A DNA stretch of 64,000 nucleotides, taken from a virus. The DNA is taken from the IMG/VR virus record IMGVR_UViG_3300037424_002358, positions 32,001 through 96,000 of that record. One strand, given 5' to 3'. Shown here piece by piece: positions 15,194-44,252 of the stretch; positions within the stretch are counted from its first letter, which is position 1, and each line of letters begins with the position of its first letter. The translations under genes were made by a program, and so were the position numbers. The notes beneath the pieces were generated by a model. The model was given only the letters and a program-made list of their open reading frames with translations. It made no database searches and was not told the DNA's origin.

Positions 15194-17239
15194 CTACTCC
15201 TGCTGGATTCCGACGCTCCGTCGAACCAGTGCCCTGAGCGGCGATACCGGCTTCTGGTTCGGCGCGCCGAGCGTGATAAGGCCTCCGCTGCCTTGCAGTC
15301 CCATCGTGCGCGGGACGAGTTGGACAGCCCGGCGCTGGAGGCCGACGGGTTCGAGCGGCTTGCGCGGCGAGACCCTGGGCGTTGCGTCCCTCGGCCCGGC
15401 GGAGCGCACCGCCATGGCGTTCAGGACCGCCCGGAGTTCCTGCTGCATCGCCGCCTGCGCGGCTGCGATGGGCGCGAACTGGGCCGCGACCTGATCGCTC
15501 ACCTGCCGCGAGATGATTGCGCCAATCTGCTGCGGATCGAGGATGGTCCCGTCCGCCGCCAGCGCGGGGGCTTCCTCTTCCTCCGCCATGGCGCGCATGA
15601 CCACGTCGGCCAGCGCGTCATAGTGCGGCTGGAGGGCACTCCCCCGGTCGGCTGGATTGAGGCTCGCCGCCATCACGGTGTCGTAGGCGGCCTTGAACGC
15701 GGTCAGGGGCGCATCCAACACGTGGGCGGTCGGCTCGGGCGTCGGGGCTACGACTTCGGACTCGGGCTCGGGCGCGGGCGCGGGCGCGACGGGAGTCGGC
15801 TCCGGGGCGGGTTCGGCCGCGGGGGCCGGTGCCGTTTCCACCGGAGGTTCGGTCCTCTCAACTACGTCGGTCACTTGGGCACCTCCCGGTTTGAGCAGCG
15901 GCGCGACCTCTGTGAGAGCGCGCACCGCCATGATGTCCACCGTCTTCTGGAACTCGGACAGGGTGGATCGAATCGACTCGCCGTGCTCATGTCCGGCGAT
16001 GTTCGTGAGGACGGCACCGAGGACGGCCCACGAGTCGGTGTCGAGAAGAACGCCCCTCGACCTCGAGAGGAACGCGTGGGCGTCGGCCAGCGTCTTGGCC
16101 CCGCCCAGGTATCCGCGCGTCTCCATCGTGCCCGTCACCACGGGCTTCTCCTCCCCCATCATCGGCTGCATCATCGCCTCGCCCTCGGCGGGCGCTGACG
16201 GGGGCGTGGCCGCGGCGTCCTCGGCCTTCATGACAATCGCACCTGGGTCGATGGCCCGCTCGGTCAACTTTCGCGCCCGGCGTTCCAACTCCTCGGCCAT
16301 CTCGTCACCCACGATGGAAGCGGCGTCGCCGCGCTTGCTGGTCATGGACCTCTCCTCCAACGCAATCTCGGTGTCGTTGTAGGCGGGCATCCTCGTAAGC
16401 GCTAGGTGCACAAGTTGGCCCGCACGATAATGCTTCTCGCCGACGCCACGCTCGCAAAGGTCGCAATGGTCGACGAGCGAACGGCGCTGGAAGGCACCGT
16501 GTGGGCCGTGATCGTGGCCCCAATCGACGAAGGCAATGGAAATACGCGTGCGCTGCTCGGGCGGGATGCCCGCCTCAATGTCGCGCTTGATCGTCCCGTA
16601 GGCCGCCTCGGCCAGAGGCGTGTCGCGGAAGTAGCCCCGGGCCTTGAAGGTCGACCCGTCGATATACTCCTTCTCCGTGTCGCCGACGATCCCGAAGCCG
16701 TCCATGTCCAGATAGTGGGCCACGCCGAGATAGGGGTGCCCGCCCTTCCAGGATGGCGAGGCAAACAGTTCGGGGGCAGGCTCGTTCTTCTTGATCCGCT
16801 GGATGAAGTCGCGGAAGAGGTCGATAGTCATCCACTCGCCGTACGCATCCCGCTTGACGCCGGACGAGGTGGCGTACCAGCGCTTGCGCCCGTCTTTGTC
16901 GGGCGCGACGCGCGTGATGTACAGGTCGAGGTGGGCAGGCTGAGACATGACCGCGAGCGTCTGGGCGGAGACGGAGGGCTGGCGGCCGTCGGACAGCGCC
17001 GGGGTGAACTCGTCGCAGTAGTCCTCGGGCATGGGCGATATGTCCACCAGCATGCAGATCGGTTCGGTCTGGCCTTCTGTCAGTCCGGCGCCGACGAAGT
17101 AGCGGCAGTCGCCGCATGACAAGCCGGGTATGCCCCCGCCGCGCCGGAAGCCAGCCTCGCCGGGGGTCAACTTCTTCGTGCCGGGTCCGAGCGAAGTCTG
17201 GCCCGTTACGCCATCGCGGAGGGTCAAGGCTTCAGTCAT
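15194..17239 (-). CDS. Prohead protease/scaffold with an N-terminal HiPIP-like 4-Cys domain
   Basis: RDAYGE, GVAHY, RISIAF and HLALTRMPAY match the layout of HK97-type proteases. Acidic, Pro-rich helical C-terminus. CGDC-x14-C-x11-C near the N-terminus. Confidence 0.7.
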   Translation of the reverse strand: MTEALTLRDGVTGQTSLGPGTKKLTPGEAGFRRGGGIPGLSCGDCRYFVGAGLTEGQTEPICMLVDISPMPEDYCDEFTPALSDGRQPSVSAQTLAVMSQPAHLDLYITRVAPDKDGRKRWYATSSGVKRDAYGEWMTIDLFRDFIQRIKKNEPAPELFASPSWKGGHPYLGVAHYLDMDGFGIVGDTEKEYIDGSTFKARGYFRDTPLAEAAYGTIKRDIEAGIPPEQRTRISIAFVDWGHDHGPHGAFQRRSLVDHCDLCERGVGEKHYRAGQLVHLALTRMPAYNDTEIALEERSMTSKRGDAASIVGDEMAEELERRARKLTERAIDPGAIVMKAEDAAATPPSAPAEGEAMMQPMMGEEKPVVTGTMETRGYLGGAKTLADAHAFLSRSRGVLLDTDSWAVLGAVLTNIAGHEHGESIRSTLSEFQKTVDIMAVRALTEVAPLLKPGGAQVTDVVERTEPPVETAPAPAAEPAPEPTPVAPAPAPEPESEVVAPTPEPTAHVLDAPLTAFKAAYDTVMAASLNPADRGSALQPHYDALADVVMRAMAEEEEAPALAADGTILDPQQIGAIISRQVSDQVAAQFAPIAAAQAAMQQELRAVLNAMAVRSAGPRDATPRVSPRKPLEPVGLQRRAVQLVPRTMGLQGSGGLITLGAPNQKPVSPLRALVRRSVGIQQE

Positions 17240-17768
17240 TCTTCCTGTACCACGATCCAGGCGTGGCCTGGAGTTTGGCGATATGCGAGGCAATACCTGC
17301 GGACGTGTAGGGAGATGGCCCGCCCCCTCCGCTGACCCCGCGCACGTGTTCCCGCCACTGAGCGGCGTTCACTTCACTTGTGGGACGGCTGACCAGTTCG
17401 TCCCTAACAGCCTCCACGAAATCGGAGTCGTAGTGCTTGGCGTTCATGGCAATGTGTAGCAGGGCTTCCGTCTCCGCCGTTGAGACGGCATGACCGCCCT
17501 GCTTGCTCGTTCCCCTCGACCAAATCCCCTGAATGTTATTGGCAATCTGAGCCGTCATGCTGAAGTTGCCAGGTCCGCCGACGGGTGTGCCCGCGGGTCC
17601 GCCGCCAGCGTTGCCAGCGCCACCGCCGCCCGGAGCGCTCCCCCCCACCTCGCCAGGGCGCCCCGCGTGGCCGAAATGTCCCGATCCGGGGCCTCCCCGG
17701 ACCACGCCTAGTTCGGGGAGGTCCCGGACCACAAGGTGCAACGGGTGGACGTGCTTGTGGATCGTCAC
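17232..17768 (-). CDS. Hypothetical protein with one GGPGSGHFGH tag
   Basis: VVR-GGPGSGHFGHAGRPGEVGGS at 17637-17699. Confidence 0.7.
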   Translation of the reverse strand: MTIHKHVHPLHLVVRDLPELGVVRGGPGSGHFGHAGRPGEVGGSAPGGGGAGNAGGGPAGTPVGGPGNFSMTAQIANNIQGIWSRGTSKQGGHAVSTAETEALLHIAMNAKHYDSDFVEAVRDELVSRPTSEVNAAQWREHVRGVSGGGGPSPYTSAGIASHIAKLQATPGSWYRKND

Positions 17769-23793: not shown

Positions 23794-23800
23794 AATTTGC

Positions 23801-27374: not shown

Positions 27375-28685
27375 TCACGGCAGGATGCCCTCGGCTCGCA
27401 GGAGCGCGTCCGTTTCCTTCCAGAAGGCGTCAATCTCCTCCCGGCTGAGGCCGGACGTGCTGACGAAGGCGCCATGCGGCAGCCCCGGATCACCCCGGAA
27501 GAAGAACTCCTCGGGCACTTCCTGCTCCAACTTGATGTCGTAGTCCTCCATGTGCGTCACGAGTGGCGTGCCAGGGAATGGGATCAGGCGGTCGAAGCCG
27601 GCCCGCTCAGGTCGATGTTTGAGAATCCAGTCGCGGGTGCGCTCCATGCTCTCGCGCGTCTCGCCCGGCAGGCCGAGGATGAAGGACATCTTGAGCGTGA
27701 TCCCGAGTTCCTTGCACCAGCGCAGCACGTCCTCGTCCTGCTCGATGGTCGTGCCCTTGTGGATGTTTGCCTTGATCCGGTTGTCGGCGCTCTCGACGCC
27801 GACGAAGCACTCGATCAGCCCGCCTTCGCGCAAACGCTCCATGTACTCCCGCCCGCCGTACTTGGCGATGATGTCGGAGCGCAGGAAGCAGCGGTAGACT
27901 AGGCCCCCATACTTCCGGTGCAGGTCCAGCAGCGCCAGCGTCCGCGGTCGGTTCAGCGGCATGATGTCGTCGTAGTAGGCTAACCCGGTGAAGCCCATCT
28001 CGACGATCTCGCGTATCTGCTGTTCGACGGAGTCGACGGACTCATAGCGCACGCGGTCGCCCCAGATGACGCCGTGCCGGCCACTCTCACAGAACGCGCA
28101 GGCCATGGGGCATCCGCGAGTCGTGAAGAGCGAGGCCATCCGGTGCTTGAAGCCGACACGGTCAGCCATGTACGAGTGATAAGCGAGGTTCCAGCGGCGG
28201 ATGGGGGGTAGCACCCAGTCCAGATCGCGGCGGAGCATCGGCATGAACAGTCGATCGCCGGACGCCTGTGCCAGTTCGAGGGTCCTGGCGACCGTGTCCG
28301 GGTGGTCGCCCTCGCCAGCGACAACCAGGTCGAAGGGGCGCCCGGAGCCGTCCGCTCCTACGGCCAGCGCAGCCGAGGGGTTCGCCCAGGGGGCGGCACC
28401 ACCGAACACGGTCCGAGACTTGGTCCACCCGTCCATTGCTCGGGCGATCCGCCGCACCTCGAACATCTGCGGCGAGGTGGCCGACAGCCACACCTGGTGG
28501 AAATCCCCGTCTTCCATCGGCAGCCGGTGGCCATCCCACTTCGGACTGGTCAGCGACATGTCGAAGAACTCGACCTCGTGCCCCTGCGCCTCGAGTTGGG
28601 CGGCGATATACCACAGCCCCAGCGGGGGCCAGACCATGGGGTCGGTGAGGAACGTGGACGGGGGGAACAGGAGGGCGACGCGCAT
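27375..28685 (-). CDS. B12-binding radical SAM protein
   Basis: PPLGLWYIAA, GGAAP, TRGCPMACAFC, GVES, FILGLPGET, PFPGTP. Confidence 0.92.
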   Translation of the reverse strand: MRVALLFPPSTFLTDPMVWPPLGLWYIAAQLEAQGHEVEFFDMSLTSPKWDGHRLPMEDGDFHQVWLSATSPQMFEVRRIARAMDGWTKSRTVFGGAAPWANPSAALAVGADGSGRPFDLVVAGEGDHPDTVARTLELAQASGDRLFMPMLRRDLDWVLPPIRRWNLAYHSYMADRVGFKHRMASLFTTRGCPMACAFCESGRHGVIWGDRVRYESVDSVEQQIREIVEMGFTGLAYYDDIMPLNRPRTLALLDLHRKYGGLVYRCFLRSDIIAKYGGREYMERLREGGLIECFVGVESADNRIKANIHKGTTIEQDEDVLRWCKELGITLKMSFILGLPGETRESMERTRDWILKHRPERAGFDRLIPFPGTPLVTHMEDYDIKLEQEVPEEFFFRGDPGLPHGAFVSTSGLSREEIDAFWKETDALLRAEGILP

Positions 28686-28989
28686 TAGTGCGAAGAGTCT
28701 AGCAGAAATTCCGTTGCGCGGAGGCATCTTACGCGCCCGGAATGACCACGGGCCCGTGTGCAATCACAGGCCCGTGCGCGTTCTCGCCCCGTTTGCCTTC
28801 CCGCTAGGGCTTGGTCGAATTCAACGACCACCGTGTAGGACGCCGCTTTCGCCAGCGCGTCGCCCGTGGGGCCGGGGCAGCCGCGAGGAGGCTCCTCAGC
28901 CAGCGAGTCTACCACAAAGGCGCAGGCCCCGACGCGTGGGGAGGTCGGGGCCTGCTATGCGTTCACTCCGCCGGGGGCGGGTGGTGAGC

Positions 28990-30489: not shown

Positions 30490-30518
30490 AGTATATACCG
30501 CCTGCGGTACCATGTCAA
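30490..30518 (-). promoter_or_regulatory. Sigma70-type promoter with a 14-bp palindromic operator
   Basis: TTGACA-17 nt-TATACT; TACCGCCTGCGGTA at 30496-30509. Confidence 0.85.
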
Positions 30519-31342
30519 GGGGTCACGACGGTCATTTTCGCCCGGAAATCTCTGCGGGTCGTGAGCAGGCCAGCCTGGGCTAGTTCTTCCGCCAGCCCCG
30601 CCAGAGCGGCCCGGTGCTGGCCCTCGCCGAAGCCCCACTCGGCGACGGCGGCGACCCGGAGGAAGACGCCGGTATCGGAGCGGCCCCACGTCCAGCCGCT
30701 CACGCCGAGGTCCTGCGCGGCAGCCTCAATGGCGGAGCGCAGGTCGGGCGTCAGCGGCGTCCAGAACTCCAATTCGCTCACGGGTTCGCCCTCGCCCTCG
30801 CCAGCCGCCTCCATGATAAGGACGCTCTCCTGCCCGAACATCTCGGCGGTATCCCGCAGAAGTTCCAGCGCTTCGCCGTCCCCGCGATAGCCGACGACCC
30901 AGGTCGGCTCGTGGGTGACCTCGCCTGTGTCCTGGCGCGTGTAGCCGCCGACGCCCGGAGCCACGGTCACATACGAGACCGTGGAAATCTCCCGTAGCCG
31001 TTCCCCGAAGACTCGCATCTCCTGAAAGACCTGCTTGGCGGGGATGCCTGGCTTAGCGGACGTGATCCCGACGGCCTTCGGCCCCGGCCCGCCTCCGGGC
31101 TGACTGCCCCCCACCTCGCCCGGACGCCCCTCGTGTCCGAAGTGCCCTGATCCAGGGCCACCACGTTCTACGCCGAGAGGCTCCGGGACGATCTCGAACG
31201 GGCCGTCGTCCATCGTGATGAGATGCCCGCCCACCTCGACCGTTTCGCCCTCAGTCAGGCGGACGAACTGCGCGCCGGTCACCTGCGTCCGGCTACCGCT
31301 GTAGCGCTCAGCACCTTCGTAGCGGTCCATGATGAAGCCCAT
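30515..31342 (-). CDS. GGPGSGHFGH-tagged protein with a SAM-lyase/DUF3293-like domain
   Basis: Tag at 31103-31165, then VGITSA...GVGGY...HEPTWVV...AEMFGQESVLI. Translationally coupled (TGATG) to the giant gene. Confidence 0.6.
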   Translation of the reverse strand: MGFIMDRYEGAERYSGSRTQVTGAQFVRLTEGETVEVGGHLITMDDGPFEIVPEPLGVERGGPGSGHFGHEGRPGEVGGSQPGGGPGPKAVGITSAKPGIPAKQVFQEMRVFGERLREISTVSYVTVAPGVGGYTRQDTGEVTHEPTWVVGYRGDGEALELLRDTAEMFGQESVLIMEAAGEGEGEPVSELEFWTPLTPDLRSAIEAAAQDLGVSGWTWGRSDTGVFLRVAAVAEWGFGEGQHRAALAGLAEELAQAGLLTTRRDFRAKMTVVTP

Positions 31343-34300
31343 CAGTTCACCTTCTCGCGGCCGTAGAAGCGCACGACCTCCGGGTGGTCAATGGAAAAGC
31401 GCGTCATGACCTCGTGACCATGATTGGTCTCGGCCCACGACCTGAGACTGCTGTCCGCCGTGACTTGCGGTTGCCACTCGTCGTATACGCTCCGGTCCGC
31501 CGAGCCGTAGGCATCCGCGATCTTTCCGGTGTCCCATCCCGCGCGTCCGGCTGCATTCTCTGCCGGCTGGAAACGGTAGAGCCAGCGATTGCCAGCGTAG
31601 TCCGTCCCGACAGCCCTGATCTCGGCCAGATGATTCTTGCAGGCGAATATGATGTCCTCAGGCGAGAATGCTCTGCCCGATGGATGGGAATGCGTCAGCG
31701 TACTGCCCCTCATGGTCGCCTGCTCTTCGTCAGTCCAAAATATCCCGGCGCCCTTGGGGTCATCCCAGCCCGTGCCGATCTTCTCAATGAGGACTTCGCC
31801 AGAGGCATCCACGGCGTAGGCTTTCTCCGCATCGTCGTGACCACGCGAGTATAGATCACTTTCGGCGGAGCGGATCGCTTCCTGCGCGGCCGATGATGGA
31901 TCAAACTGGACTCCGACGTATTCCCGCTCCTGGTAGGTCTTGAGACCCTCGCCGATCAGCGAGCCGCCGGAACCGACGACTTCCCGCATGCCTCCGCCCC
32001 CTGGCACGCTTCCGCCCACCTGGCCGGGCCGCCCCTCATGTCCGAAATGGCCGGAGCCTGGCCCGCCGCGGATGATCCATTCCTCCGGGTAGTCGGATGG
32101 GTCGTCGACCGATATGATCTCCTCGACGGGGCCGTTGTACGGAACGCGCACGTAGTGAGTTCGGCGGGCAGCCTTGAACTCCACCTCGCCCTGCCGGCGC
32201 TCCACCCTGGCCCGGATCGTCTCCAACATCGCCGACCTGTCCCTGCGGTTGTTCTCGTTCATCTCGGCCATCGGCAAGATGCCCGTCCCGAGGAGGTCGG
32301 ACGCATGGCTGAACCGGAGGAAGTCGTCCCTGCCGTTGAGGTAGGACGAGATCAGGTCGGCCCGGTACTCGTCGTCCCGGCTCGACTCCTTGTACGGTGA
32401 TATGGCGGCCAGCGACACGAGGTAGCGATACTCCCCCTTGGCGAGGCTGTCCGTGAACACGTCGTCGAGTTGCAGGGCGTAGTCGACTAGGTGCCCGACC
32501 TCGTGGCCGAGCGTGTCGTTGTACACGTCGGAGCCGATCGTGCGGGATGCCTCCAGCCATTCGTCGAAGCCGGGAAACTTCCCCGGCACGTGACCTCTGA
32601 CCTTGTCGCCGAAGTCGGGGTTCAACCACAGCATGGCACGGTTGTCGGCCCTGTTGTAGGCTGCCAGCCCCCACACATTCCCCCACACCTCCGCCACCGC
32701 GGCCCTGACCTCGTCGTATTTCTCCGGCGGCGTCGGTTTGAAGTCAATCAACTCTTCCCGCAGGAAGTCGTTGAGGGCGACGGGGTCGTCCGTCAGGCGA
32801 AGCCCGCGTAGCCGCAGGTTCAATTTTCTTTCGGCCCTCTCGACCATTCCCTGGACCGCAGCCGCCGTCTCGGGGTTGCCGAACACGTAGCGGTTGCCGC
32901 CGATCCTGCGCTCCTCCGGTGGGCCTCCGCCTCCGGGTGCGCTCCCGCCAACCTCACCAGGGCGCCCCGCGTGACCAAAGTGACCGGAGCCGGGGCCACC
33001 GCGCATGGTGATGCCGACAGCCTTCTCGAAGGCGCGCAGGCTGTCCCCCCCGATCAACTGGCCCGATGGCGTCATGAACTCGAACTCCGGCGAGATGTCG
33101 CCGGAGAGGACCATGTCGCGGATCGCCCGCCGCTGCGCCGCCGTCTGCGGGGGCCGGCCCTTGAAGGCCAGGATGACATTCACCGGCCCCTCCCGGGCGT
33201 CCTCGTCCACCGCGATGAAGCCCGAGTCGTACATCACCTGGATCACCGTATCCAGGAACACGTCCGGGAGATTGCGCGCCTCGCCCTCGGCATCCTCAAA
33301 CGCCTCCTCCAGTCCCTCTATCGGCTCCTCATCGAGGCCCGCCTTGCGGATGGCATCGGCGAAGGCCGCGTCGTGGTTGCCGAAGCCAGTCTCGAAGACT
33401 CTGCCGTCGGGCGACACGAGCCATCCGTTCATGCTCCGGTGGCCGGGCACGAACGGACTCTCATGCGGCGAGAAGGCGTCGGCGACTGCTCGGCGGAAGT
33501 TATATAGATAGCCCTCGTTCCATTCCTGCGTGATGCCAGCGCCCGCGCCCGGCGCACTTCCGCCGACCTCACCAGGGCGGCCCTCATGTCCGAAGTGGCC
33601 CGAGCCCGGGCCACCTCGCTCTAGGATCTCCAGCGGGATGAAAATACGGCGCGGCCGGAGGCGGCAGACGGCCCGGACGGACAGGCTCTCCTCCTCGAGT
33701 TGCTCACCCGGCCAGAGGATGTCCATGAAGTCGTCCTCGTACTTGTCCCACCATTCGTCGGCCCTGCTCGTTACCAACTCGTTGTAAGAGGTTTCCAGGT
33801 CCCCCCCCGTCCTGTGGCTCAATACCCACGTCGCGAACCACGTGACAAAGTCGTCGCCATAGACGAATGCCGTGGGTCGGACAACTGAGGAAGTTGTGTA
33901 ATCCCCCTCCTCTGGACCCTTGCCTCCGATCTCCTTCCCCTCGGTCCCAAATTCAATATCCCCATTAGGCCCAATCTCCGCGGCGTAGGCCATCCCGCCT
34001 TCCGATCCGGTCCATGCTATCTCGGCATCGCGCACCGCGTCCGGGTCAATGACCGCCACCAGCGCATCCTCGCGCAACTGTTCGAGCGGCGGCCAGATTG
34101 CGCTCCCCTGAGTCCAGTTCCAGTCGCCGCCCCGTGCAATGACACTCTGCGCCATGGCCGCGGTGATTGCGGCCATGGCGGGATCGTCGCTTACCCCGTC
34201 ATGAGCCTCGGGCGAACCCGGTCTCATCTCATCGTCATAGGAGGGATAAGCGTTCGGTCCAGCCAGGTAGGTTAGGGAGTCAGGTTCGCCCATCTGACCC

Positions 34301-37300
34301 GCGGTGCCTTTTCTACCCGTGTAGACGTTCGATACCCAATTGCCCACCTGCGGTAGTAGGCCATGCTCAACGATGCTCTCGAGGTGATCCCGGAGCGTGC
34401 CGTGGAAGAACAGCCTGGGGCCTACCTGATTGGGCTTCAGCGACGCGGGCACTTTGACCGTCCCGCCCGCGCTCGGTGCGCTTCCTCCGACCTCACCGGG
34501 CCGACCCTCGTGCCCGAAGTGACCTGAGCCAGGGCCACCACGGAGGGCGAGACCTGCCCACCACGGTAGCGGCTTCGGCGTCCAGCGGCGCCCGACCAGC
34601 GCACTCGTGAACTCTCTATCGGGCCATCCTGTCACGACGCCGGAGTCGGCGATTGCTCCGAAGGGTCTACCCTCCGGGTTCACGCGCTCCCAAACGACGC
34701 CCTTGTCCGCGTCGGGAACATCCGCCTCCATCGTGTATCGAGCAATCGACGCCAGAACCGAACGCTGGTCGTCCGTCGGTGTGAGGTTCCGATCCCACAT
34801 GATGCCGACGTAGTTTTCCCGACCTGCGCTCCCTCGACTGACACGGATGAACCCGTGGGCAGTGAAGAGTCCCTCGCCTGTCGCGCTCGGCACGCCATGC
34901 GCGATGAGCGTTGCCGACGACCGCTCCATTGCATCCTGCTTCGCCGCCTCAAGGGTCGCAGATGCTACGACGCCGTGGGGCAAGCCATATTCCTCCTGCA
35001 GTCTGTCTATCCAGCCGGATGGGCGGTATGTGTAGGGCCAATCGCTTCCTGGCTCGTTCGTGATGCGCCCGAGGCGGAGCGACCCGTTTGCGGACTCATA
35101 CTCGACAAAGACAGCGGGGTTGTCAGGCGGATAGTCTGGATCGGGCGGGAATGAGTATTGAGCCTTGGTTTCCTCTGGAAGAACGGTCGAGTAGTAGGCC
35201 ACGAGCGCATTCATCGCGGCCTGCTCGTGGCCCTTGCCCTCGACATTGAAGATGGTGCCATCGGGCGCAAGCCAGAACTCCCCGGAGTTGGCTTCCTCGC
35301 GAGTGAGTTTCATGGCTTCCTCCGCGAGGACCTGCTGGAGGCCTTCTATGTCAGCCCGCGAGAACTTGTGTCCCTTGAAGGCGGTGTCATTGAGGCGCGG
35401 GCTGAGATGACTCGCGTACTTCGTCCCCTGCTCCGCAACCCCGCCGCCGCTTGGCGCGCTCCCGCCTACCTCCCCTGGCCGACCCTCATGCCCGAAGTGA
35501 CCACTACCGGGACCGCCGCGCTCCTCAAGGGTCCGCCGGAAGTAATAGCGTCTGCTCTCCTTGAAGCCTGCCGCCTCGTCCCGCGGATCGTTGCCTCTCA
35601 TGCCTACTGCGATGAAGCCGCCCGGTCCGTCAATGAGATAGTCGCTTCCAGTCATCGCGGTCAATGGCGTATAGGAACCCGACGTTATCACGACGCGCTC
35701 TTTCGCTTCGCCGAGAACGCGCCGGGCAATAGCCACTGCCTGCGACTTGCTGTATTCGTTGTAGCGCGATGTGGACCATTGGAGGATGCGTCCGAGTGCT
35801 GCCCCACTCAGGCGAAGCGGATTGGCCTGGCTACCAGGGCCACCTGCGTAGTGCGGGCCATATTCGGCAAGCCTTCCCCCATCGGAAGCAGCATCGCCCG
35901 GTGCGCTCCCGCCAACCTCGCCTAGCCGACCCTCATGCCCGAAGTGGCCGGAGCCTGGCCCGCCGCGGGAAACGATAGATCGCGTGCGCAAGAGCGAGTC
36001 AACGCCCGATCCGTGAGGCCCATGTTCCAGGTCGACCGTTGCGCCTCCCGCCATCGGATGCAGAACGATGTCCCACGCCTCCCATGGGAGAATCTCAATG
36101 AGCCGCGGAATCTTCCCGGCCATCTCTGAGATGCGGCTTGCTTGCTCGTCGGTTATCTTCGCGCCGCCAGTCGACACTCCCTGTGTGCCCGACGTGCTCC
36201 ATCGCACGAGGCCGAGTCCGAGCATGATGCCCTCGTGTGAGAAGTGCGCACCAGGGATGAAACCGCTCGGCTCGACGCCAAAGAATTTCTTGAACCTGTC
36301 CGATAGGACGCCAGGATGCTCAAGAGCCGATTGGGCTGAACGGTCGTGACTCTCTACCTCGACAACCGTTCCATCCCTGAGCAGCCAGTAGTCGCCAAAG
36401 CCTATGTGCGAGGGGGAGACTGTTGGAGGATATACATCTCGGATATGCCCCGCCTCGCGTTCCCTAAAAAGCGCCTCGACCTTGTCCCGGATGGCAGGAA
36501 ACTCGCTGGCGATCTGGCTTTCCTTGAGCGATGGCGCAATACCAGCCATGCTCTCACCGTAGCGGGGCTGTGCCTCTGCCGTCGTCGCCCCGCTACCCGG
36601 CGCACTTCCGCCAACCTCACCAGGGCGACCCTCGTGCCCGAAGTGGCCCGATCCGGGGCCACCGCGCTCAATGACGCTCCTCAGGAGACGTGCGCCCTCA
36701 GGTCCTATCTGGTGTTCGTCGACCACGGACTCGACGCCCGGATTGACGGCCAGGATATCCTTGATAGTGTTCACGACTCGCCGACCCACTTCGGGCGAAG
36801 CCTCAATCCCGAGACCGTTGGGCCACATAGACGTGAGGCGGGCAAAGCCATGCGCGAACATCCAGTCGGACGCCTCGCCGAAACCCATGTCGCCGAGGCC
36901 CGCGTCGGCTATCGAGACGCTTGCCGACTCGTGGTGCAGGGCCGACAGGCTGATGTCGGTCAAGTTGCCGTCGGGCCTGATCCAGAATCGCGCCGCCGTG
37001 CCCTTGAGCCTGACTGCCGTCGGATCAGCGGTGCCGTAGCGGCCAGCCATGGCGTCCGCGACCTTGGCAGCAACTCCGCTCGGCTGCGACCCCCCGATCT
37101 CCCCTAGTCGCCCCTCATGACCGAAGTGCCCGGAGCCGGGACCGCCGCGCTGGGCGTAGCCCGCCGACCCGCCGTGACGCTCCGTGAAGTGCGATGAAAG
37201 AGTTGATAGAATCTGGTCGCCACTCGGCCACCAATCGTTCGGCGAGAGCGTCAGAGTTGCCATGACCTCGTCGGCTGTCGTATTCTCCAGGTCATCGGTG

Positions 37301-39285
37301 AACTCGAAAACTGTATCCCGGCCATCGGACTGTACAGCGGCGTCCATCAGAGTGATGACTGAGTTGCGAAGTGCTGGCGAGATTGGCCGCGGAAGGTCTA
37401 TGCCATAGCCTCGACGGCTTACCCGCATGCCATCGTCTATGGCATGCCAGCCAGTAGGCCATCTGCCGACGCGGGCCAAGCCAGCCGAGACGAGGCGCAT
37501 TTTGTCGTCGACACTTTCCTCCTGCTCGGCTATTGTGCGAGGCCAATGTCCATGAAGGGCAAAGAAGCCCACATCCTCGTGGTTGGCGTTCTGGGCTAGG
37601 TACGTTCCATCCGACCCGATATACGAGGCATCGAGCGGGTCCGATTTGCCGAACTCGTCCTCTATTCTCCCCGTCAAGACTCTTCCTTCCGGTAGCGTCA
37701 TCCCCGGTGCGCTTCCACCCACCTGCCCCGGCCGCCCCTCATGACCGAAGTGCCCGGAGCCGGGACCGCCGCGCAGTTCTAGGCCAGCGACGCGGGCAAG
37801 TTGTTCTGTGTCACCGCCATGAGGCCAACTGGACAAGCCGCGGTTGAAATTGGCCTCGTACTTCACTTCCGTGTCGCGGTTGGCGAGAAGATAATCCGTC
37901 AGCGTACTCCTGGCGGCGCGCGTAAGCGGAGTCCAGAAATCGAGGGCGATCCGACGGTTGTAGACATTGGTCACGCGTACGAAGCCGAGTGCGCGCATGG
38001 CCTGGAGCCAACGCTGTGGATCGCTCTGATCGCCGGATGGCAGATCGGCCTTCTTCAGAGCCTCAGCAGCCGCGTCGGCATGGGTATCTTCTAGGCCGCT
38101 CTCACGTGGACGGATGGAAATCGCGCGTCCGTCTGGAGCAATGTAGCCGTCGAACATGGAACCGGGTTTGACCGTAAACTCGCCATGTCCACGGGCACTC
38201 ACCATTGCATCAGCGACTCGGACGGCCTTTGAGCCGTAGCGTCTCTCTGGCTCGCGCGTGGATGCTCCCCCTCCGGGCGCGCTACCCCCGACCTCACCAG
38301 GGCGCCCCGCGTGGCCGAAGTGGCCCGAACCGGGGCCGCCGCGCATCACCGTCAGCGCCTCGCCGAGCAGGAGAGGACGCCTAGACCCATTCAGGAAGAC
38401 GACCTCGCCGCGTAGCGCCGCCGCGATCTCCGAACGTCCCACGGCGACCCTGTGCCCGTTGCGCTGTCCAGGCCACACGTGCGGCCCGCCCCGCTCGACC
38501 AAGGCCCGGTCACCGGCCATCATCGGCAGGTGCACCGTCCTGACGCTGTCGTACTCGTCGCGGGACACAACCACGCCGCGGGCTGGCAGGTGGAACGGCA
38601 GGACGCCGGGTGCCAGAGCGGTTAGGCCATCCAGGTTGCTGTCAGGTGCCATGTCCGTAAGGAGCGACACATGCGGGATGTATCGGGCCGGGTTGGAAAA
38701 GTCGTTCGCGTCGGGCGTGCAGCCGTTCTCCAACGCGAGCCGGTAGAGGTCGGACTGGAGTCGGACGAGCGCCGGGTCCGGGGCTACGGACAGCGCCAGC
38801 GCGCCGCCCATCTGAATCGGCTCGACCAACTCGACCCTGAACATCAGCGGCAGGCCGAGGTTGTTCCAGATGCGTTCGAGCGCCGTATCCTCGGCCCCGT
38901 CGAGGTAGACGAGACTGCAATGGAAATGGGCCGGGTTGAGCCGGTCGCAGGATATGCCGCGCCGCCTCAACTCGGCCTCATACAGCGCACTCAAGTTCGC
39001 GAGCGTGGGATCGTTCGGGAAAGCGAGGTAGACGAACGCGGCGTGGCCGACCGCCCGCCGCATGATCGGCAGCGCCACCGTCGAGGGGATGAAGGCTACT
39101 CGCCCGAGAGGATCGTCACGCCGAATTTGGTCTGCCACCCCAGCCTGCCTAGATGGAGGCCGAACGAGAGAAGCCATCCGGTTAGAACCTCGCTCACGAC
39201 CGGCACGTAGATCGGTGCCAGAAGGTTCACGCCCATCAGCCAGGCCAGCAGCGGCAAGAGCCAGCAGCCGAGACAGAAGTCGCAC
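31342..39285 (-). CDS. Giant polyvalent protein (2647 aa) of 11 modules separated by 10 conserved tags; includes 2H phosphoesterase, ART-like, zincin and JAB domains
   Basis: Uninterrupted ORF with HCSL/HVSL, FFHGT..GL, HEVGH and HSHPS..FS..D motifs. The true start is probably 100-220 nt downstream of 39285. Confidence 0.85.
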   Translation of the reverse strand: MRLLSRLLALAAAGLADGREPSGTDLRAGRERGSNRMASLVRPPSRQAGVADQIRRDDPLGRVAFIPSTVALPIMRRAVGHAAFVYLAFPNDPTLANLSALYEAELRRRGISCDRLNPAHFHCSLVYLDGAEDTALERIWNNLGLPLMFRVELVEPIQMGGALALSVAPDPALVRLQSDLYRLALENGCTPDANDFSNPARYIPHVSLLTDMAPDSNLDGLTALAPGVLPFHLPARGVVVSRDEYDSVRTVHLPMMAGDRALVERGGPHVWPGQRNGHRVAVGRSEIAAALRGEVVFLNGSRRPLLLGEALTVMRGGPGSGHFGHAGRPGEVGGSAPGGGASTREPERRYGSKAVRVADAMVSARGHGEFTVKPGSMFDGYIAPDGRAISIRPRESGLEDTHADAAAEALKKADLPSGDQSDPQRWLQAMRALGFVRVTNVYNRRIALDFWTPLTRAARSTLTDYLLANRDTEVKYEANFNRGLSSWPHGGDTEQLARVAGLELRGGPGSGHFGHEGRPGQVGGSAPGMTLPEGRVLTGRIEDEFGKSDPLDASYIGSDGTYLAQNANHEDVGFFALHGHWPRTIAEQEESVDDKMRLVSAGLARVGRWPTGWHAIDDGMRVSRRGYGIDLPRPISPALRNSVITLMDAAVQSDGRDTVFEFTDDLENTTADEVMATLTLSPNDWWPSGDQILSTLSSHFTERHGGSAGYAQRGGPGSGHFGHEGRLGEIGGSQPSGVAAKVADAMAGRYGTADPTAVRLKGTAARFWIRPDGNLTDISLSALHHESASVSIADAGLGDMGFGEASDWMFAHGFARLTSMWPNGLGIEASPEVGRRVVNTIKDILAVNPGVESVVDEHQIGPEGARLLRSVIERGGPGSGHFGHEGRPGEVGGSAPGSGATTAEAQPRYGESMAGIAPSLKESQIASEFPAIRDKVEALFREREAGHIRDVYPPTVSPSHIGFGDYWLLRDGTVVEVESHDRSAQSALEHPGVLSDRFKKFFGVEPSGFIPGAHFSHEGIMLGLGLVRWSTSGTQGVSTGGAKITDEQASRISEMAGKIPRLIEILPWEAWDIVLHPMAGGATVDLEHGPHGSGVDSLLRTRSIVSRGGPGSGHFGHEGRLGEVGGSAPGDAASDGGRLAEYGPHYAGGPGSQANPLRLSGAALGRILQWSTSRYNEYSKSQAVAIARRVLGEAKERVVITSGSYTPLTAMTGSDYLIDGPGGFIAVGMRGNDPRDEAAGFKESRRYYFRRTLEERGGPGSGHFGHEGRPGEVGGSAPSGGGVAEQGTKYASHLSPRLNDTAFKGHKFSRADIEGLQQVLAEEAMKLTREEANSGEFWLAPDGTIFNVEGKGHEQAAMNALVAYYSTVLPEETKAQYSFPPDPDYPPDNPAVFVEYESANGSLRLGRITNEPGSDWPYTYRPSGWIDRLQEEYGLPHGVVASATLEAAKQDAMERSSATLIAHGVPSATGEGLFTAHGFIRVSRGSAGRENYVGIMWDRNLTPTDDQRSVLASIARYTMEADVPDADKGVVWERVNPEGRPFGAIADSGVVTGWPDREFTSALVGRRWTPKPLPWWAGLALRGGPGSGHFGHEGRPGEVGGSAPSAGGTVKVPASLKPNQVGPRLFFHGTLRDHLESIVEHGLLPQVGNWVSNVYTGRKGTAGQMGEPDSLTYLAGPNAYPSYDDEMRPGSPEAHDGVSDDPAMAAITAAMAQSVIARGGDWNWTQGSAIWPPLEQLREDALVAVIDPDAVRDAEIAWTGSEGGMAYAAEIGPNGDIEFGTEGKEIGGKGPEEGDYTTSSVVRPTAFVYGDDFVTWFATWVLSHRTGGDLETSYNELVTSRADEWWDKYEDDFMDILWPGEQLEEESLSVRAVCRLRPRRIFIPLEILERGGPGSGHFGHEGRPGEVGGSAPGAGAGITQEWNEGYLYNFRRAVADAFSPHESPFVPGHRSMNGWLVSPDGRVFETGFGNHDAAFADAIRKAGLDEEPIEGLEEAFEDAEGEARNLPDVFLDTVIQVMYDSGFIAVDEDAREGPVNVILAFKGRPPQTAAQRRAIRDMVLSGDISPEFEFMTPSGQLIGGDSLRAFEKAVGITMRGGPGSGHFGHAGRPGEVGGSAPGGGGPPEERRIGGNRYVFGNPETAAAVQGMVERAERKLNLRLRGLRLTDDPVALNDFLREELIDFKPTPPEKYDEVRAAVAEVWGNVWGLAAYNRADNRAMLWLNPDFGDKVRGHVPGKFPGFDEWLEASRTIGSDVYNDTLGHEVGHLVDYALQLDDVFTDSLAKGEYRYLVSLAAISPYKESSRDDEYRADLISSYLNGRDDFLRFSHASDLLGTGILPMAEMNENNRRDRSAMLETIRARVERRQGEVEFKAARRTHYVRVPYNGPVEEIISVDDPSDYPEEWIIRGGPGSGHFGHEGRPGQVGGSVPGGGGMREVVGSGGSLIGEGLKTYQEREYVGVQFDPSSAAQEAIRSAESDLYSRGHDDAEKAYAVDASGEVLIEKIGTGWDDPKGAGIFWTDEEQATMRGSTLTHSHPSGRAFSPEDIIFACKNHLAEIRAVGTDYAGNRWLYRFQPAENAAGRAGWDTGKIADAYGSADRSVYDEWQPQVTADSSLRSWAETNHGHEVMTRFSIDHPEVVRFYGREKVN
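32008..38343 (-). repeat. Ten dispersed 63-nt coding repeats (RGGPGSGHFGHxGRxGxxGGS)
   Basis: Copies at 32008-32070, 32941-33003, 33556-33618, 34480-34542, 35458-35520, 35905-35967, 36604-36666, 37087-37149, 37711-37773 and 38281-38343. Confidence 0.97.
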
Positions 39286-39937: not shown

Positions 39938-42547
39938 CTAGGCGCCGACCCACGGCGCGTATCCCCCGCCCGCCACAAGTGCGTCCAGTTCGCCAGGATT
40001 GAACGCTAGGCCGCAGTGACACACTGTCGGGTGGGCCGGCGGGAATGGGGTTGGCTCGAACACGGTCTCATATAAGGTGTCGATCGGCACGAAGCCGAGC
40101 GCCTCGTTGGACTCGCACAGGGCACAGGGATGCGGGTTGCCCGCCTCCGTGATGCCGCGGGCACCCAGGTGGACCCACGCCTTCTCCTGGAAGCCGCTAC
40201 GGACCATCTGCTCGTGGCGGCCAGCGTTCTCCGCCCACGCGATCTCGTAGTTGACGATGGAGTTCGTCCGCGCCTCGCTCATCTCCTCGAGGCCCGACAG
40301 GATCGACTCCATCGTGCGCGCGGTGAAGCCTTCCATGCCGAGGATTTCTTCGGCGGTCGCCCCGTCGCGCAACGCCTGCGCGATCTCTGGGCTGGAGATC
40401 CCCTGGCGCACGCCGGCGGTGATAATCCGCTTGATGAAGGTCACCGTGCCGGAGTCAATGTTCGTCACCAGATCGCCAGCCCGCCCCTCCAGGAATTCGA
40501 GCACCCTCGGGTCCATCAAGGTGAAAGACAAACCGGGCAGCGTCGGTGCCGACGCCAGCCCCCGCTGGTAGAGTGAGCGGAGGACCGTCAGAGCCATGTC
40601 CTCAATCCCCAATTCGTAGGCTCGCGAGTAGGCTTCCAGGATCGCCTGCCGGTCCCACACGTTGGCCAGTTGCCACCAGGACTCGCCAGCCAGGATCGCT
40701 TCGAGGGCGTCCTGTATCTCGTCGTCGGCCTGGCGCGTGACAAGGGCGTCGAGTTCCGATTCCTGGCCGAAGGTGATGGCGTTCATGTTCGGAAGCCATA
40801 CGCCTTGAATCATGTCATCGTCGAGGGACTTCACGACGGCCTCGACCTGGGGGACCATCCGCCGGGTGGCGACCTCGACGAGTTTCCGCACGCGCGCCTG
40901 GTTGTTCTCCTGCGCCTGGTCCGGCAGGTTCTTCATGCCGGGCAGGATGATCGCCGCCAACTCCTTCTCAATGCTCTTGGCATCCCGCGTCGCCGGGTTC
41001 TCGCCATAGGGCGTGACGCGCGGCACCAGCGACACCTGGACCTCCGCCCCCGCTTCCTCGGCGGCTTTGACAATCTCGCCAAGCGTCGCATCGCGGCGGC
41101 GGAAGAGGGATCGGACACGCCCCACGAGTCCAACGGGCCGTGACTGGTCACCACGACCACCCTGCGACGGAGGGACGTTGTCGGGCGGCTTCGGCCCGGT
41201 CGGCTCAGCGCCCCCCTCCGGCGGAGGCTCCTTGCCGTACTTCGGACCGAGGAGGCTCAGGAGGAACTGTTCGACGGGCCGACCCCCCGCCCCCGCCGGA
41301 GCGGCGATCATCGCGTTGGGGTCGATCTTCGTTTCGAGGATTCCGAGGTTGACAACCTCCTGCCGGCCCTCGGCCGGGGCGAGCATCTGCCCGTTGATGA
41401 GCGCCGCCAAGCCCTGAGCGACGGCGAGCATCGAGCGGCCGCGGGCCACCATCGCCTCGTCGTCGCGCTCGACCCAGATGAACTTGATGACGGGTAGCGG
41501 CACGCGCGGCAGGATGGAGTTGAAGTAGTTGCGCAGGCCCTCCCGCAGGTTGGCGTGGCCGGACCGGCGCGTCTGACGCTCCGCCCGGATCACCCCGGCC
41601 AGCGTCCCGCCGCCCCGAGCCTCCTCCAGGCCGATGTCCGAGATGCGCATGCCATAGCCGCCAGCGAGCACCTGCGCATAGTGCAGCGTCGCCTTGTCGT
41701 AGAGTATTTCGGCGGGTGGCAAGCCGAACGGAATCCACTGGACGGCCTTGTCGTGCTGGTAAAGGACGGGCACCTTCATGGGGTCGATGCCACCGAACAT
41801 CTCTCGCATGCTCGCGAGCCACTCAATGGCGTCGTCCTTCTCCATGTCCATGAGGTCGAGGATGCCCGCCTCGGGTGTGTCCAGTAGCAACTTCCAGTAG
41901 TACATGTCGCCGCGGTAGAGCATCTCGACGGCGAGGTAAACCTTCTCCGGCGGGGCCATGCCCCAACCCTTGCGCCGCAGTTCGGGACGGGGCGAGTAGA
42001 TCATGCGCCGGATGGCGTGTCGCGGGAACGCCACCGCCTTCGCCGGCACGTCGGGCACCATCTGCGCTACCGGGTACTGGTCGTCAAGCGTCGGCCATAG
42101 CGACGCAGCGTCGATGTGTTCGACGGCCAGGACCGGGCCGTCCGCGTCATCGTCCTCAGTGATTACCTCGGCTGCGCCGCCGAAGGGCACGTCGAGATAG
42201 TCCTGCGACACGAGGTCAACGTGGAGGTCGAAGCCGCCGTCAAGATGCTCGAACAGATCGCGGTAGTAGGTGATGGCGCGCGAGATCAGCGGGTTGGTCG
42301 CGTCCTCGGGCCGCACGGGCACGATATCCCACTCGAGGGCCTTGATGCCGTTGATGAGCGTGTCGCGGCATACGGTGGCGAGAGGCTGGTTCCTGACGAA
42401 CTGCCGCCACTGCGCGGCTTGCAGCCATCCTGGGGCACCGTACTGTGGAATGAGGCGCTGGAGGTAGAGGGGTAGTTCGATAGCCCGGCCCGGCGGCGGG
42501 ATGTCGGGCGGCGCGAGCGGCACCGCAAGGGCGTTACGCTTCGGCAT
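39938..42547 (-). CDS. Portal protein fused to a MuF (head morphogenesis) domain
   Basis: Follows the terminase; portal-like N-terminal ~420 aa (GWGMAPPE, YGMRISDIG); C-terminal KAW...CALC..N...PPAHP..CHC MuF signature. Confidence 0.85.
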   Translation of the reverse strand: MPKRNALAVPLAPPDIPPPGRAIELPLYLQRLIPQYGAPGWLQAAQWRQFVRNQPLATVCRDTLINGIKALEWDIVPVRPEDATNPLISRAITYYRDLFEHLDGGFDLHVDLVSQDYLDVPFGGAAEVITEDDDADGPVLAVEHIDAASLWPTLDDQYPVAQMVPDVPAKAVAFPRHAIRRMIYSPRPELRRKGWGMAPPEKVYLAVEMLYRGDMYYWKLLLDTPEAGILDLMDMEKDDAIEWLASMREMFGGIDPMKVPVLYQHDKAVQWIPFGLPPAEILYDKATLHYAQVLAGGYGMRISDIGLEEARGGGTLAGVIRAERQTRRSGHANLREGLRNYFNSILPRVPLPVIKFIWVERDDEAMVARGRSMLAVAQGLAALINGQMLAPAEGRQEVVNLGILETKIDPNAMIAAPAGAGGRPVEQFLLSLLGPKYGKEPPPEGGAEPTGPKPPDNVPPSQGGRGDQSRPVGLVGRVRSLFRRRDATLGEIVKAAEEAGAEVQVSLVPRVTPYGENPATRDAKSIEKELAAIILPGMKNLPDQAQENNQARVRKLVEVATRRMVPQVEAVVKSLDDDMIQGVWLPNMNAITFGQESELDALVTRQADDEIQDALEAILAGESWWQLANVWDRQAILEAYSRAYELGIEDMALTVLRSLYQRGLASAPTLPGLSFTLMDPRVLEFLEGRAGDLVTNIDSGTVTFIKRIITAGVRQGISSPEIAQALRDGATAEEILGMEGFTARTMESILSGLEEMSEARTNSIVNYEIAWAENAGRHEQMVRSGFQEKAWVHLGARGITEAGNPHPCALCESNEALGFVPIDTLYETVFEPTPFPPAHPTVCHCGLAFNPGELDALVAGGGYAPWVGA

Positions 42548-42644: not shown

Positions 42645-44252
42645 CTAGACCTTGGCGAACTTTCCCTTGCGCCACCGCCGCTTGAGGGCCGTCAGGCTGT
42701 GGTGGGCGCCGGCGGACGAGTCCACCTGGTCGTCGTGCTCGGCGTTTGGGAATCCTCCGTGCTCGGCCATGTACGCCTTGTTCCACGGACCCCGAAGGAG
42801 GTAGACGTTGCCCGCATTTACCTGCTTGGCCCAGGGGTCGGCGAAGACAAGTTTGTCGCCGGAGTGCGGCATGTCCTCGAAGTCGAAGCCGTCCAGTGAT
42901 CGGGCGTAGTCGGCTGTGAGCAGTTTGCCCGAGGCCCCTGGCTCCCGCTCCATACGAATCTTGACGGGGTGCCCATCGAGGTCGGCCGTCTGCTGGATGA
43001 TGTCGTCGACCTGCTCGGGGTCCAACTGTTCGAGGACCTGGTCGAGGACCCAATAATGGCCCTCCTTGTCCTGCGACAGGAGCGTGCCCGACAGCCGGTC
43101 GGGATCGCGCTTGCCCTTGGCCTTGGCTGTCGCGGCGAGGTCCCAGAAGCGCACGCCGGATTTGATGTCGACCGCATGTCCGTTGACGACCCGGCATACA
43201 TCGACGGGTACCTCATCCGCGTCCTTGATCTCGAACCGCCCAACCTTGAAGAGGAAGCCTTCTGGCCGCGTCGGCCTCTGCTGCCACTCCGCCGCCCACA
43301 CCATCGGCCCCACGATCTCGCGCGTCTCCTCCAGATACTTCTTGGAGTAGCGCGACGGTGCCAGAGGCTCGCCAGGCTCCCGCCCGAGGATGTCGGGGGC
43401 GATGCCGTTCTCCTCGTCCTCTTTCTCGGCCAAGGCTGGGTACCGTAGCACCTTCCAGCGGCCACCCTCCTCGACTGTGCCCTCCTCCGCGAGGACCTGG
43501 CCGGCAAGGTCGTCCTCGTTCCACCGGGTCGTGATGAAAAAGATCGGCGCGCCCTCCCACAGCCGCGGGATGAACGTGCCCTGCCACCACTCCTTCGCCC
43601 GCTGGCGCTTCGTCTCCGACTGTGCGTCCTCCCAGGAGCGGTGCGGGTCGTCCACGACGGCCGCGCCGAACCCGAGTCCGGTGACCGTGCCGCCGACGCC
43701 GGTGGCGTAGACGTAACCTTGAGCGCCCTCAAAGCCCCAATGGTTGGCCCGCCACTTTGCCAGTTCGGGCGAGCGCGTGCCGAACAGGCGCGCGTAGATG
43801 GGGGACATGCTGATCGCGCGGGCGTTGCGGGAGTTCTCAACGGCGCGCTCAGCACCATAGGAGGTGAGGAGGATCGGAAGGTCGGGATGCAGCCCGAGCC
43901 AGAACGGCGGGAGCATCTGCGACACCAGCAGGGACTTCCCGTGCTGCGGGGGCGCTTCGATCATGACGTAGCCGTGGCCCTCGGTCACGACCTTCGTCAG
44001 TTCGCCCGCTAGGTGTTCGTGGAAGAGGTCGGCCTTGTAGGTCGGCATCATCTCCCGGGTGAATGCCAGGAGATCGGTGCGGGCCTTGGTCAGCCGCTTG
44101 ACCTCGGATGCGTTCTCGGCCCCGAAGAGTCGGGAGAATGTCTGCGCCGTCAGCCTGTGGAGTTGTTCGCGGGAGACGAGTCGACCGCGGAGTTCCTCCG
44201 GGTCGAGTCCGAGGGTTTCAGCGATCCGGGGGACGCGGCCGCTCCGATTCAT
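42645..44252 (-). CDS. terL: Terminase large subunit
   Basis: APPQHGKS Walker A, VVDDPH Walker B, TRWNEDDL, WDLAAT, HDDQVDS. Confidence 0.95.
   Translation of the reverse strand: MNRSGRVPRIAETLGLDPEELRGRLVSREQLHRLTAQTFSRLFGAENASEVKRLTKARTDLLAFTREMMPTYKADLFHEHLAGELTKVVTEGHGYVMIEAPPQHGKSLLVSQMLPPFWLGLHPDLPILLTSYGAERAVENSRNARAISMSPIYARLFGTRSPELAKWRANHWGFEGAQGYVYATGVGGTVTGLGFGAAVVDDPHRSWEDAQSETKRQRAKEWWQGTFIPRLWEGAPIFFITTRWNEDDLAGQVLAEEGTVEEGGRWKVLRYPALAEKEDEENGIAPDILGREPGEPLAPSRYSKKYLEETREIVGPMVWAAEWQQRPTRPEGFLFKVGRFEIKDADEVPVDVCRVVNGHAVDIKSGVRFWDLAATAKAKGKRDPDRLSGTLLSQDKEGHYWVLDQVLEQLDPEQVDDIIQQTADLDGHPVKIRMEREPGASGKLLTADYARSLDGFDFEDMPHSGDKLVFADPWAKQVNAGNVYLLRGPWNKAYMAEHGGFPNAEHDDQVDSSAGAHHSLTALKRRWRKGKFAKV

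Follow-up and report, generated by a model that had tools for sequence, protein, structure and literature searches.

A 2647-amino-acid (aa) polyvalent protein (P0001) of a virus in the IMG/VR collection (record IMGVR_UViG_3300037424_002358) holds six diverged copies of a domain family that is real and hitherto unnamed; both the domain and its layout are new, the kind of system is not. The stretch analysed (the window; 64,000 nucleotides, positions 32,001 to 96,000 of the record) is part of a complete genome of 111,962 base pairs with direct terminal repeats, has a GC content of about 65% and carries nearly all of its genes on the minus strand. Ten near-identical copies of a Gly/His-rich tag of 22–23 aa, R-GGPGSGHFGH-x-GR-x-G-x-x-GGS-x-P, split the polyprotein into 11 modules (M0–M10, Table 1). 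An earlier note, made from the DNA letters alone, had proposed that six intervals of the chain share a short pattern around a PDG turn, a His and an Arg; these intervals coincide with the tag-to-tag units M1, M2, M3, M4, M6 and M8, and every motif quoted for them is present (M1 YIAPDG/THAD/LGFVRV, M2 YIGSDG/NHED/AGLARV, M3 WIRPDG/HHES/HGFARL, M4 WLLRDG/SHDR/LGLVRW, M6 WLAPDG/GHEQ/HGFIRV, M8 LVSPDG/NHDA/SGFIAV). M8 lacks the Arg, as the note had it, with Ala at that position, and outside the motif the modules are indeed very divergent, at 14–26% identity to M3.

Homology of the six modules and extent of the family

Module-against-module BLASTP is weak (M1–M3 4.6e-5, the best; M4–M6 0.004; others above 0.05 and several above 0.1), and relatives were therefore collected for profile searches. 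We split 72 tag-sharing proteins of 1455–4633 aa at their tags into 368 modules and ran jackhmmer from each of the polyprotein's own modules. Seeded with M3, the search converges on 40 modules, which include all six named ones and none of M0, M5, M7, M9 or M10. An independent profile, made from 38 matched stretches of other proteins with the polyprotein's own rows excluded, matches all six modules at E values from 8.5e-19 to 0.018 and nothing else in the chain, and found zero matches in 51 controls (the reversed protein plus 50 shuffles). These comparisons of sequence confirm that the likeness of the six modules is homology and not chance, and with no match to any curated family (see below) they bear out the proposal of six paralogues of one unnamed domain. 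The weak pairwise BLASTP values are what could be said for the view that unrelated modules have come by similar short motifs through chance; we regard that explanation as vanishingly improbable, and as refuted by the M3-seeded jackhmmer run, the independent profile and a search of 1.84 billion proteins that found 138 members at E ≤ 1e-3, to which can be added that two of the modules fold to one topology. The whole phage genome holds no further copies.

That search, of 1.84 billion representative proteins, used a profile of eight copies (A3) and returned, besides the 138 proteins, 20 at E ≤ 1e-10 and 4 at E ≤ 1e-30, numbers that make the family real but rare. Local iteration over the collected proteins gave 442 copies in 148 proteins. 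The domain occurs as solo proteins of 104–200 aa, as cassettes in giant multi-domain proteins and, most commonly, as tandem arrays in which 2 to about 10 copies are separated by 20–40 aa; some proteins are arrays only, such as one of 808 aa with 6 copies and 81% coverage. The Gly/His tag is found on only 22 of 130 domain-bearing proteins in the local iteration search, and the domain is thus independent of the tag. Because the nearest relative of each copy in the polyprotein sits in another protein and not in its own chain (98.5% identity between M8 and a domain in P0075, 60% between M4 and one in P0111), the six copies are not recent duplicates; by sequence they look like old subfamilies, shuffled and assembled as cassettes with no recent local expansion. 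The earlier note's picture of a pattern expanded as a family thus holds for a large and diversified family, and fails for a local expansion of these six copies.

Domains that share a chain with the new one in relatives are ParB, 2H, ADP-ribosyltransferase (ART), NUDIX, CCA-adding enzyme, kinase, radical SAM, DUF7178, portal and MuF. DUF7178 (PF23802) is present in five of seven large domain-bearing proteins scanned (P0127, P0153, P0176, P0194 and P0204), a few hundred residues from domain copies, which may reflect a functional link or merely the shared context of polyvalent proteins. Several wider searches were uninformative. We found no match by tblastn of the polyprotein and two array proteins against 50,697 GenBank phages, no copy in a prophage across 185,579 species genomes, no related locus for either of two solo family proteins, no additional members in word-indexed searches with a second profile (A4) and no usable match for M3 or M1 in the ESM Atlas. 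The genes neighbouring a four-copy array in a 180-kb viral contig have no informative PHROG matches, and protein-cluster look-ups for family members gave uninformative names.

Conserved residues, variable segment and predicted fold

The domain spans about 110–120 aa with the signature W-[ILV]-x-P-[DN]-G ... H-x3-A ... G-[WF]-[IV]-R ... T-x-x-Q. Among the 442 copies, conservation is 77% for W25, 78% for P28, 56% for D29, 95% for G30, 97% for H40, 64% for A44, 92% for G72, 90% for R75, 59% for T93 and 64% for Q96. Of the Asp, His and Arg singled out earlier as conserved, the His and Arg stand as the best-conserved polar residues; the Asp of PDG is part of a β-turn, is replaced by N in 12% and S in 8% of the family and, being only 56% conserved, is not a third catalytic-type residue. 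T93 and Q96 covary in the manner of a helix capping box (odds ratio 7, p 9e-15). The PDG turn, the two Gly, the core Trp and the T-x-x-Q capping box look structural and fold-defining, which leaves only the His and Arg as candidates for functional residues. The His is kept as uniformly as the structural glycines, also in arrays of 7–10 copies; since catalytic residues tend to decay in array copies, such uniformity fits folding or a common contact better than catalysis. Copies without both His and Arg number 0 of 384, with about 1 expected, a comparison without statistical power. Mean-field covariation recovers the first hairpin and is otherwise noisy; within it, position 41 (beside the His) covaries with position 88, the cross-strand partner of R75, a weak hint. 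The His and Arg are probably close together, towards one end of the sheet.

Length variation is concentrated between helices 1 and 2 (model positions 52–67), where the segment runs from 2 to 72 aa (standard deviation (SD) 8.9); the core helices and strands have a length SD of about 1, and there are two smaller variable loops besides. The ~70-aa insert of M6 falls in this hypervariable α1–α2 segment. The domain is mildly acidic (median net charge −3, pI 5.5), and we set aside DNA-mimic and DNA-binding ideas, for which so mild an acidity is uninformative.

AlphaFold2 (AF2) was run on M1 (26 sequences; predicted local distance difference test (pLDDT) score 85.9, predicted template modelling (pTM) score 0.82) and M3 (eight sequences; pLDDT 72). 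Secondary-structure elements follow in identical order in these two of the six modules (helix, strand, β-hairpin, two helices, β-hairpin, helix, strand), as the earlier note's proposal of a shared domain would lead one to expect. The six modules match no curated model in Pfam (E ≤ 1), PHROGs (E ≤ 0.01) or NCBIfam (E ≤ 0.1); a Pfam scan of 26 individual family members found no family matched by more than one of them, and nine further family proteins likewise matched no Pfam model. Profiles A3 and A4 have no match among Protein Data Bank (PDB) sequences. For both models Foldseek returned nothing at E ≤ 0.001 (best E 0.05, with the M3 model; gelsolin chains at 1.4, with the M1 model), and exhaustive structural alignment to 48,161 chains gave top Z scores of 4.5–4.7, to gelsolin/ADF-H chains over 70–80 residues with a root mean square deviation (RMSD) of about 3 Å, where the typical best Z for unmatched models in this tool is 7–8. 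A library of predicted viral protein structures yielded, as its top matches, phage proteins that are themselves uncharacterised (E 2e-3 to 0.15). Modelling confidently predicts a compact fold, one without a recognisable solved relative.

Two candidate assignments were rejected. In a PD-(D/E)xK nuclease reading the Asp would be only 56% conserved, no conserved acidic residue or Lys comes after it and the next conserved residue is the His; a T7 primase N-terminal α+β fold, suggested by one array copy at a sub-threshold Pfam E of 1.3e-4, has no fold support and was treated as chance. Acb1, Apyc1, Tad and Acb2 are absent from the lists of PDB sequence and fold matches, though an analogous function is conceivable.

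Delivery context and candidate roles

Polyvalent proteins, as described by Iyer, Burroughs, Anand, de Souza and Aravind (2017, PMC5512222), are large late-gene products encoded near MuF that combine disparate domains, and the same study proposed their delivery with DNA and processing by zincin-like peptidases. The protein studied here likewise joins several unrelated domains in one polypeptide (eleven modules, six of the new family and five unrelated) and lies among late/virion genes linked to MuF, with the terminase large subunit (TerL) and a portal–MuF fusion upstream. In both, 2H, ART/Tpt1-like, HExxH-motif and JAB-like modules are strung together with uncharacterised domains beside portal/MuF genes, and the new domain resembles the uncharacterised domains of that survey in occurring also solo and duplicated within proteins. 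It departs from them in that the six modules match none of the Pfam entries LPD1–40 and PBECR1–5 at E ≤ 1, near-identical Gly/His tags delimit the modules and one domain fills 6 of the 11; the words 'linker' and 'glycine-rich' are absent from the text of PMC5512222. The PBECR RNase domains (section 19 of that paper) are alike in being small, duplicated and shuffled in polyvalent proteins, with conserved residues of the His/Arg type; they are unlike in that, besides the lack of a Pfam PBECR match, the order of elements in our models retrieved no Barnase/EndoU/RelE-like chain.

The residue before the tag is Arg in 12 of 12 tags in the window (ten in the polyprotein and one in each of two other proteins). 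Elsewhere (n = 295 tags) it is R in 38%, K in 32% and D in 20% (R/K together 70%), with V or I two positions further back. Related viral contigs (L012, L014, L015, L002 and L008) carry the tag on four to six consecutive ORFs (open reading frames) and have no single giant ORF, so that an identical cargo set occurs both fused and split. Literature searches on the tag motif and on cargo/polyvalent terms found nothing relevant.

A precedent for loading, cutting and injecting is the phage T4 system, in which the internal proteins and Alt bear a capsid-targeting sequence cut by the prohead protease gp21. In T4 as here, proteins that are otherwise unrelated, and whose genes lie close to those for the head, have in common a short peptide with a fixed residue in front of it. 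In T4 this signal is a leader at the N terminus and is cut off behind a Glu, whereas the tag here is internal, occurs ten times in one chain, is Gly/His-rich and follows Arg/Lys, and its cleavage is a proposal.

From the Arg/Lys before the tags, the late-gene setting and the likeness to polyvalent proteins, we infer a sequence of loading, cutting and injection. The polyprotein would be loaded into the procapsid and cut between [RK] and GG before each tag, by the head protease or by its own HExxH module, and the released pieces would enter the host together with the DNA. Delivery of this kind is suggested by the TerL and portal–MuF neighbours, the tag on two other proteins, the polyvalent-type domains that co-reside with the new one and a cassette of the domain in a virion RNA polymerase (vRNAP).

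With this last occurrence, an optional one, the domain family is represented in a class of proteins whose packaging and ejection are established. Among the matches in the viral structure library is a 1453-aa protein of Shigella phage pSb-1. A hidden Markov model of the 442 copies matches it at E 1.5e-5 with a complete signature (W-x-x-x-DG, H, G-x-V-R, L-T-x-x-Q), and the reverse single-sequence search, from the pSb-1 cassette to the family, matches at 2e-4 with none from 20 shuffles. The protein is the middle piece of an N4-like vRNAP annotated as three coding sequences (CDS; phrog_2206). N4 gp50, the packaged and ejected vRNAP of N4, has been described as flexibly linked globular units, 'beads-on-a-string' (PMC13434306). 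The pSb-1 cassette sits just before the polymerase core, at a place that corresponds roughly to the flexible linker by which the N-terminal and polymerase domains are joined in N4 gp50, itself a protein with no detectable copy. About 29 G7C-like phages carry the cassette, and in other members of the genus the match is confined to the final 26 residues of the query. G7C and Bp4 have the cassette, and their relatives PhAPEC7 and IME11 lack it; presence in some Gamaleyaviruses and absence in close relatives mean that it is dispensable for the ejection machinery there. The two settings are alike in that the G7C-like (Gamaleyavirus) vRNAP holds one cassette of the family, and unlike in that the vRNAP is without Gly/His tags, and that cutting into modules is not known for it. 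In pSb-1 (L034, KF620435) the vRNAP lies at 2194–12982, where three 'hypothetical' CDS (gp101–103) jointly span phrog_2206; this three-CDS state may be a real split or the product of sequencing frameshifts. A genome search with profile A4 found no match in pSb-1 or in Atu_ph07.

For the domain itself we tentatively favour, at what we judge to be not quite an even chance, a role as a non-catalytic recognition module in which a rigid conserved core bears a single hypervariable segment, located between helices 1 and 2. Every paralogue would have its own partner to recognise, of host or phage origin, and the invariant His together with the Arg would provide a shared site for anchoring or for contact with phosphate, or else clamp the structure. 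We prefer recognition to an enzyme because a rigid core is combined with a hypervariable loop and deep subfamily divergence, and because array copies all keep the signature and no enzyme-like relative was found. The gelsolin/ADF-H protein-binding domains (actin-binding; gelsolin-like in Sec23/24) offer the only consistent structural likeness, a non-significant one (Z 4.5–4.7): they are the top neighbours of both models and have a similar strand/helix order, at scores below the meaningful level, with 5–13% identity and no common motifs. Several points weigh against recognition. These Z scores fall below the quoted noise level of the tool (7–8), and partner binding, cleavage and packaging are read from context. 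A His at 97% and an Arg at 90%, held at less than 25% identity, are also expected of a minimal active or ligand site; the covariation hint that the two are close is weak, mild acidity (median net charge −3) says little for or against, and tandem arrays could equally have a structural role.

The earlier note had read the conserved Asp, His and Arg as suggesting an enzymatic or nucleotide-binding site. On such a reading the domain would be a small enzyme that needs no metal, or a module that binds or cleaves nucleotides. An example would be a phosphodiesterase or RNase in which the His acts as general base or acid and the Arg holds a phosphate, with paralogues suited to different RNAs or defence signals. 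We consider this unlikely, while acknowledging what speaks for it: His and Arg are the best-conserved polar residues, the Arg shares a strand face with an aromatic two positions before it (G-[WF]-[IV]-R), position 41 beside the His shows covariation with position 88, which pairs with the Arg across the strands, and neighbouring or co-resident domains are largely nucleic-acid or nucleotide enzymes (2H, Tpt1-like, ParB, NUDIX, CCA-adding, kinase). Conserved polar residues in LPD domains have been taken as hints of catalysis (PMC5512222). Yet profile, sequence and fold searches link the domain to no enzyme, nucleotide-binding or other ligand-binding family, and once the turn Asp (56%) and the capping-box T93/Q96 are removed just two conserved polar residues are left, of which the one His is unable to serve as both acid and base. 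The commonest architecture, a bare tandem array of 4–10 copies, is less typical of enzymes than of repeats that bind or have a structural part to play, and a His in every copy of such arrays is unusual for enzymes; M8, moreover, is without the Arg and nonetheless 98.5% conserved in a related phage protein. An enzymatic role is thus neither supported nor contradicted by the present analysis.

Arrays bear just as directly on a further explanation, which we hold to be rather improbable: that the domain is a self-associating building block which targets nothing in the host and belongs to the ejection apparatus or to some body inside the capsid. Tandem arrays or reassembling cleaved paralogues could form such a body, or the domains could be small 'beads' that pass through the tail and then refold. 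That tandem arrays dominate the family and that every copy keeps the signature fit a structural constraint, and the G7C-like vRNAP cassette sits at the flexible linker of the N4 gp50 'beads-on-a-string' protein. Joint folding of M1 with M3 gave weak support, with a score of 0.57 against 0.01 for the best control; runs agree in at least 68% of contacts, with partner pLDDT of at least 53. Of 80 solved complexes 58 pass the mark used for joint folds, as do 2 of 110 mismatched pairs, and scores of up to 0.60 include 7 of the 80 complexes and both passing mismatches. The tool rates a score of 0.57 as more often wrong than right without a prior. Nor would one expect, for a conserved assembly interface, deep divergence together with one hypervariable loop. 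Copies per protein vary from 1 to about 10, solo genes of 104–200 aa exist, and the vRNAP cassette is absent in close relatives of the Gamaleyaviruses that carry it.

Returning to recognition, a bolder form of it, which we offer as a doubtful speculation, is that the domain is a new protein fold and serves as a diversifiable, injectable specificity module whose paralogues bind different host defence components or signals, or disarm them through the His/Arg; cleaved paralogues may also reassemble into hetero-oligomers. If so, the count and type of cassettes would read out the counter-defence repertoire of a phage. Polyvalent virion-delivered proteins are a large and mostly unexplored store of phage counter-defence activities, and about a third of their domains are without known function. 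One of these is now defined by its signature, boundaries and profile, by its range of copy numbers and its hypervariable loop, and by a confident model that has no solved relative. Should the modules turn out to bind specific targets, or to be a minimal enzyme of a new sort, the known anti-defence tools would gain a class; should they be structural beads, they would be relevant to the packing and ejection of large proteins. Because the cassette in the vRNAP of G7C-like coliphages is present or absent among close relatives, its role is directly testable in E. coli.

Other modules and neighbouring genes

The five modules outside the family, which include the 2H-like and Tpt1-like ones, are mutually unrelated. 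M0 has phmmer matches to modules of proteins carrying PF13563/PF02834. M7, probably an ADP-ribosyltransferase-fold effector to judge from its sequence, opens with an F-F-H-G-T motif and has close homologues in two other tagged polyproteins. Neither M9 nor M10 has a Pfam, NCBIfam or PDB match. M9 is a candidate for the zincin-type processing peptidase proposed in PMC5512222. The motif of M10 has a His–Ser spacing one residue shorter than the canonical one, and its homologues end three other polyproteins.

Table 1. Polyprotein, its modules and tags, and associated genes (window coordinates)
Feature	Position	Strand	Basis
2647-aa polyvalent protein (P0001)	31342..39285	−	single uninterrupted ORF, 11 modules M0–M10, 10 tags
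M0, 2H phosphoesterase-like lead module, non-member	38341..39285	−	PF13563 E 4.4e-5, below Pfam's cut-off
Tag 1 (R + GGPGSGHFGH..GGS.P)	38275..38343	−	tag scan
Domain copy 1 (M1, aa 359–482)	37840..38211	−	E 8.5e-19, profile without own rows; AF2 pLDDT 85.9, pTM 0.82
Tag 2	37705..37773	−	tag scan
Domain copy 2 (M2, aa 540–665), weakest member	37291..37668	−	E 0.018 without own rows, 6.6e-13 with; jackhmmer from M3
Tag 3	37081..37149	−	tag scan
Domain copy 3 (M3, aa 744–866)	36688..37056	−	E 1.1e-17; AF2 pLDDT 72
Tag 4	36598..36666	−	tag scan
Domain copy 4 (M4, aa 948–1066)	36088..36444	−	E 1.1e-5; domain in P0111 60% identical
Tag 5	35899..35967	−	tag scan
M5, unrelated module	35518..35898	−	no family match
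Tag 6	35452..35520	−	tag scan
Domain copy 5 (M6, aa 1314–1539)	34669..35346	−	half-matches 8.5e-7 and 6e-5 around ~70-aa insert
Tag 7	34474..34542	−	tag scan
M7, unrelated module, weak Tpt1/KptA (ADP-ribosyltransferase fold) likeness	33616..34473	−	NCBIfam NF002014 E 0.0018; PDB 6e3a E 0.4
Tag 8	33550..33618	−	tag scan
Domain copy 6 (M8, aa 1939–2082), Arg to Ala	33040..33471	−	E 1e-8; domain in P0075 98.5% identical
Tag 9	32935..33003	−	tag scan
M9, unrelated module, candidate zincin peptidase	32068..32934	−	HEVGH (HExxH) motif alone
Tag 10	32002..32070	−	tag scan
M10, unrelated module, RadC/JAB-like	31345..32001	−	HSHPSG...S-x-x-D motif alone
Portal + MuF-like head-morphogenesis fusion	39938..42547	−	phrog_2662 4.3e-12, phrog_2468 9.6e-12; upstream of polyprotein
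Terminase large subunit	42645..44252	−	phrog_38 9.4e-80; PF17289
Separate tag-bearing protein	30515..31342	−	tag at 31097–31165; weak S-AdoMet lyase match
Second separate tag-bearing protein	17232..17768	−	tag at 17631–17699

The minus-strand gene order is TerL, portal–MuF fusion, a 175-aa ORF and the polyprotein. As listed, the polyprotein ORF begins at GTG (5′ end 39285–39064, minus strand), and the database copy (P0002, 2573 aa) begins 74 codons later; the true start is uncertain, and the modules are unaffected either way. Other genes in the window, all on the minus strand, encode an HNH endonuclease (23131–23802; phrog_2118, 1.1e-23), a BCS1-like AAA ATPase (44469–45620; PF00004, PF08740) and a DNA methyltransferase-like protein of 610 aa (46818–48650; phrog_67, 6.4e-18). 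A few genes downstream of the polyprotein lies a B12-binding radical SAM enzyme (27375–28763, minus strand; PF04055 2.7e-20, PF02310 4.9e-11), and radical SAM domains are also found within two giant proteins that bear the new domain (P0193 and P0204).

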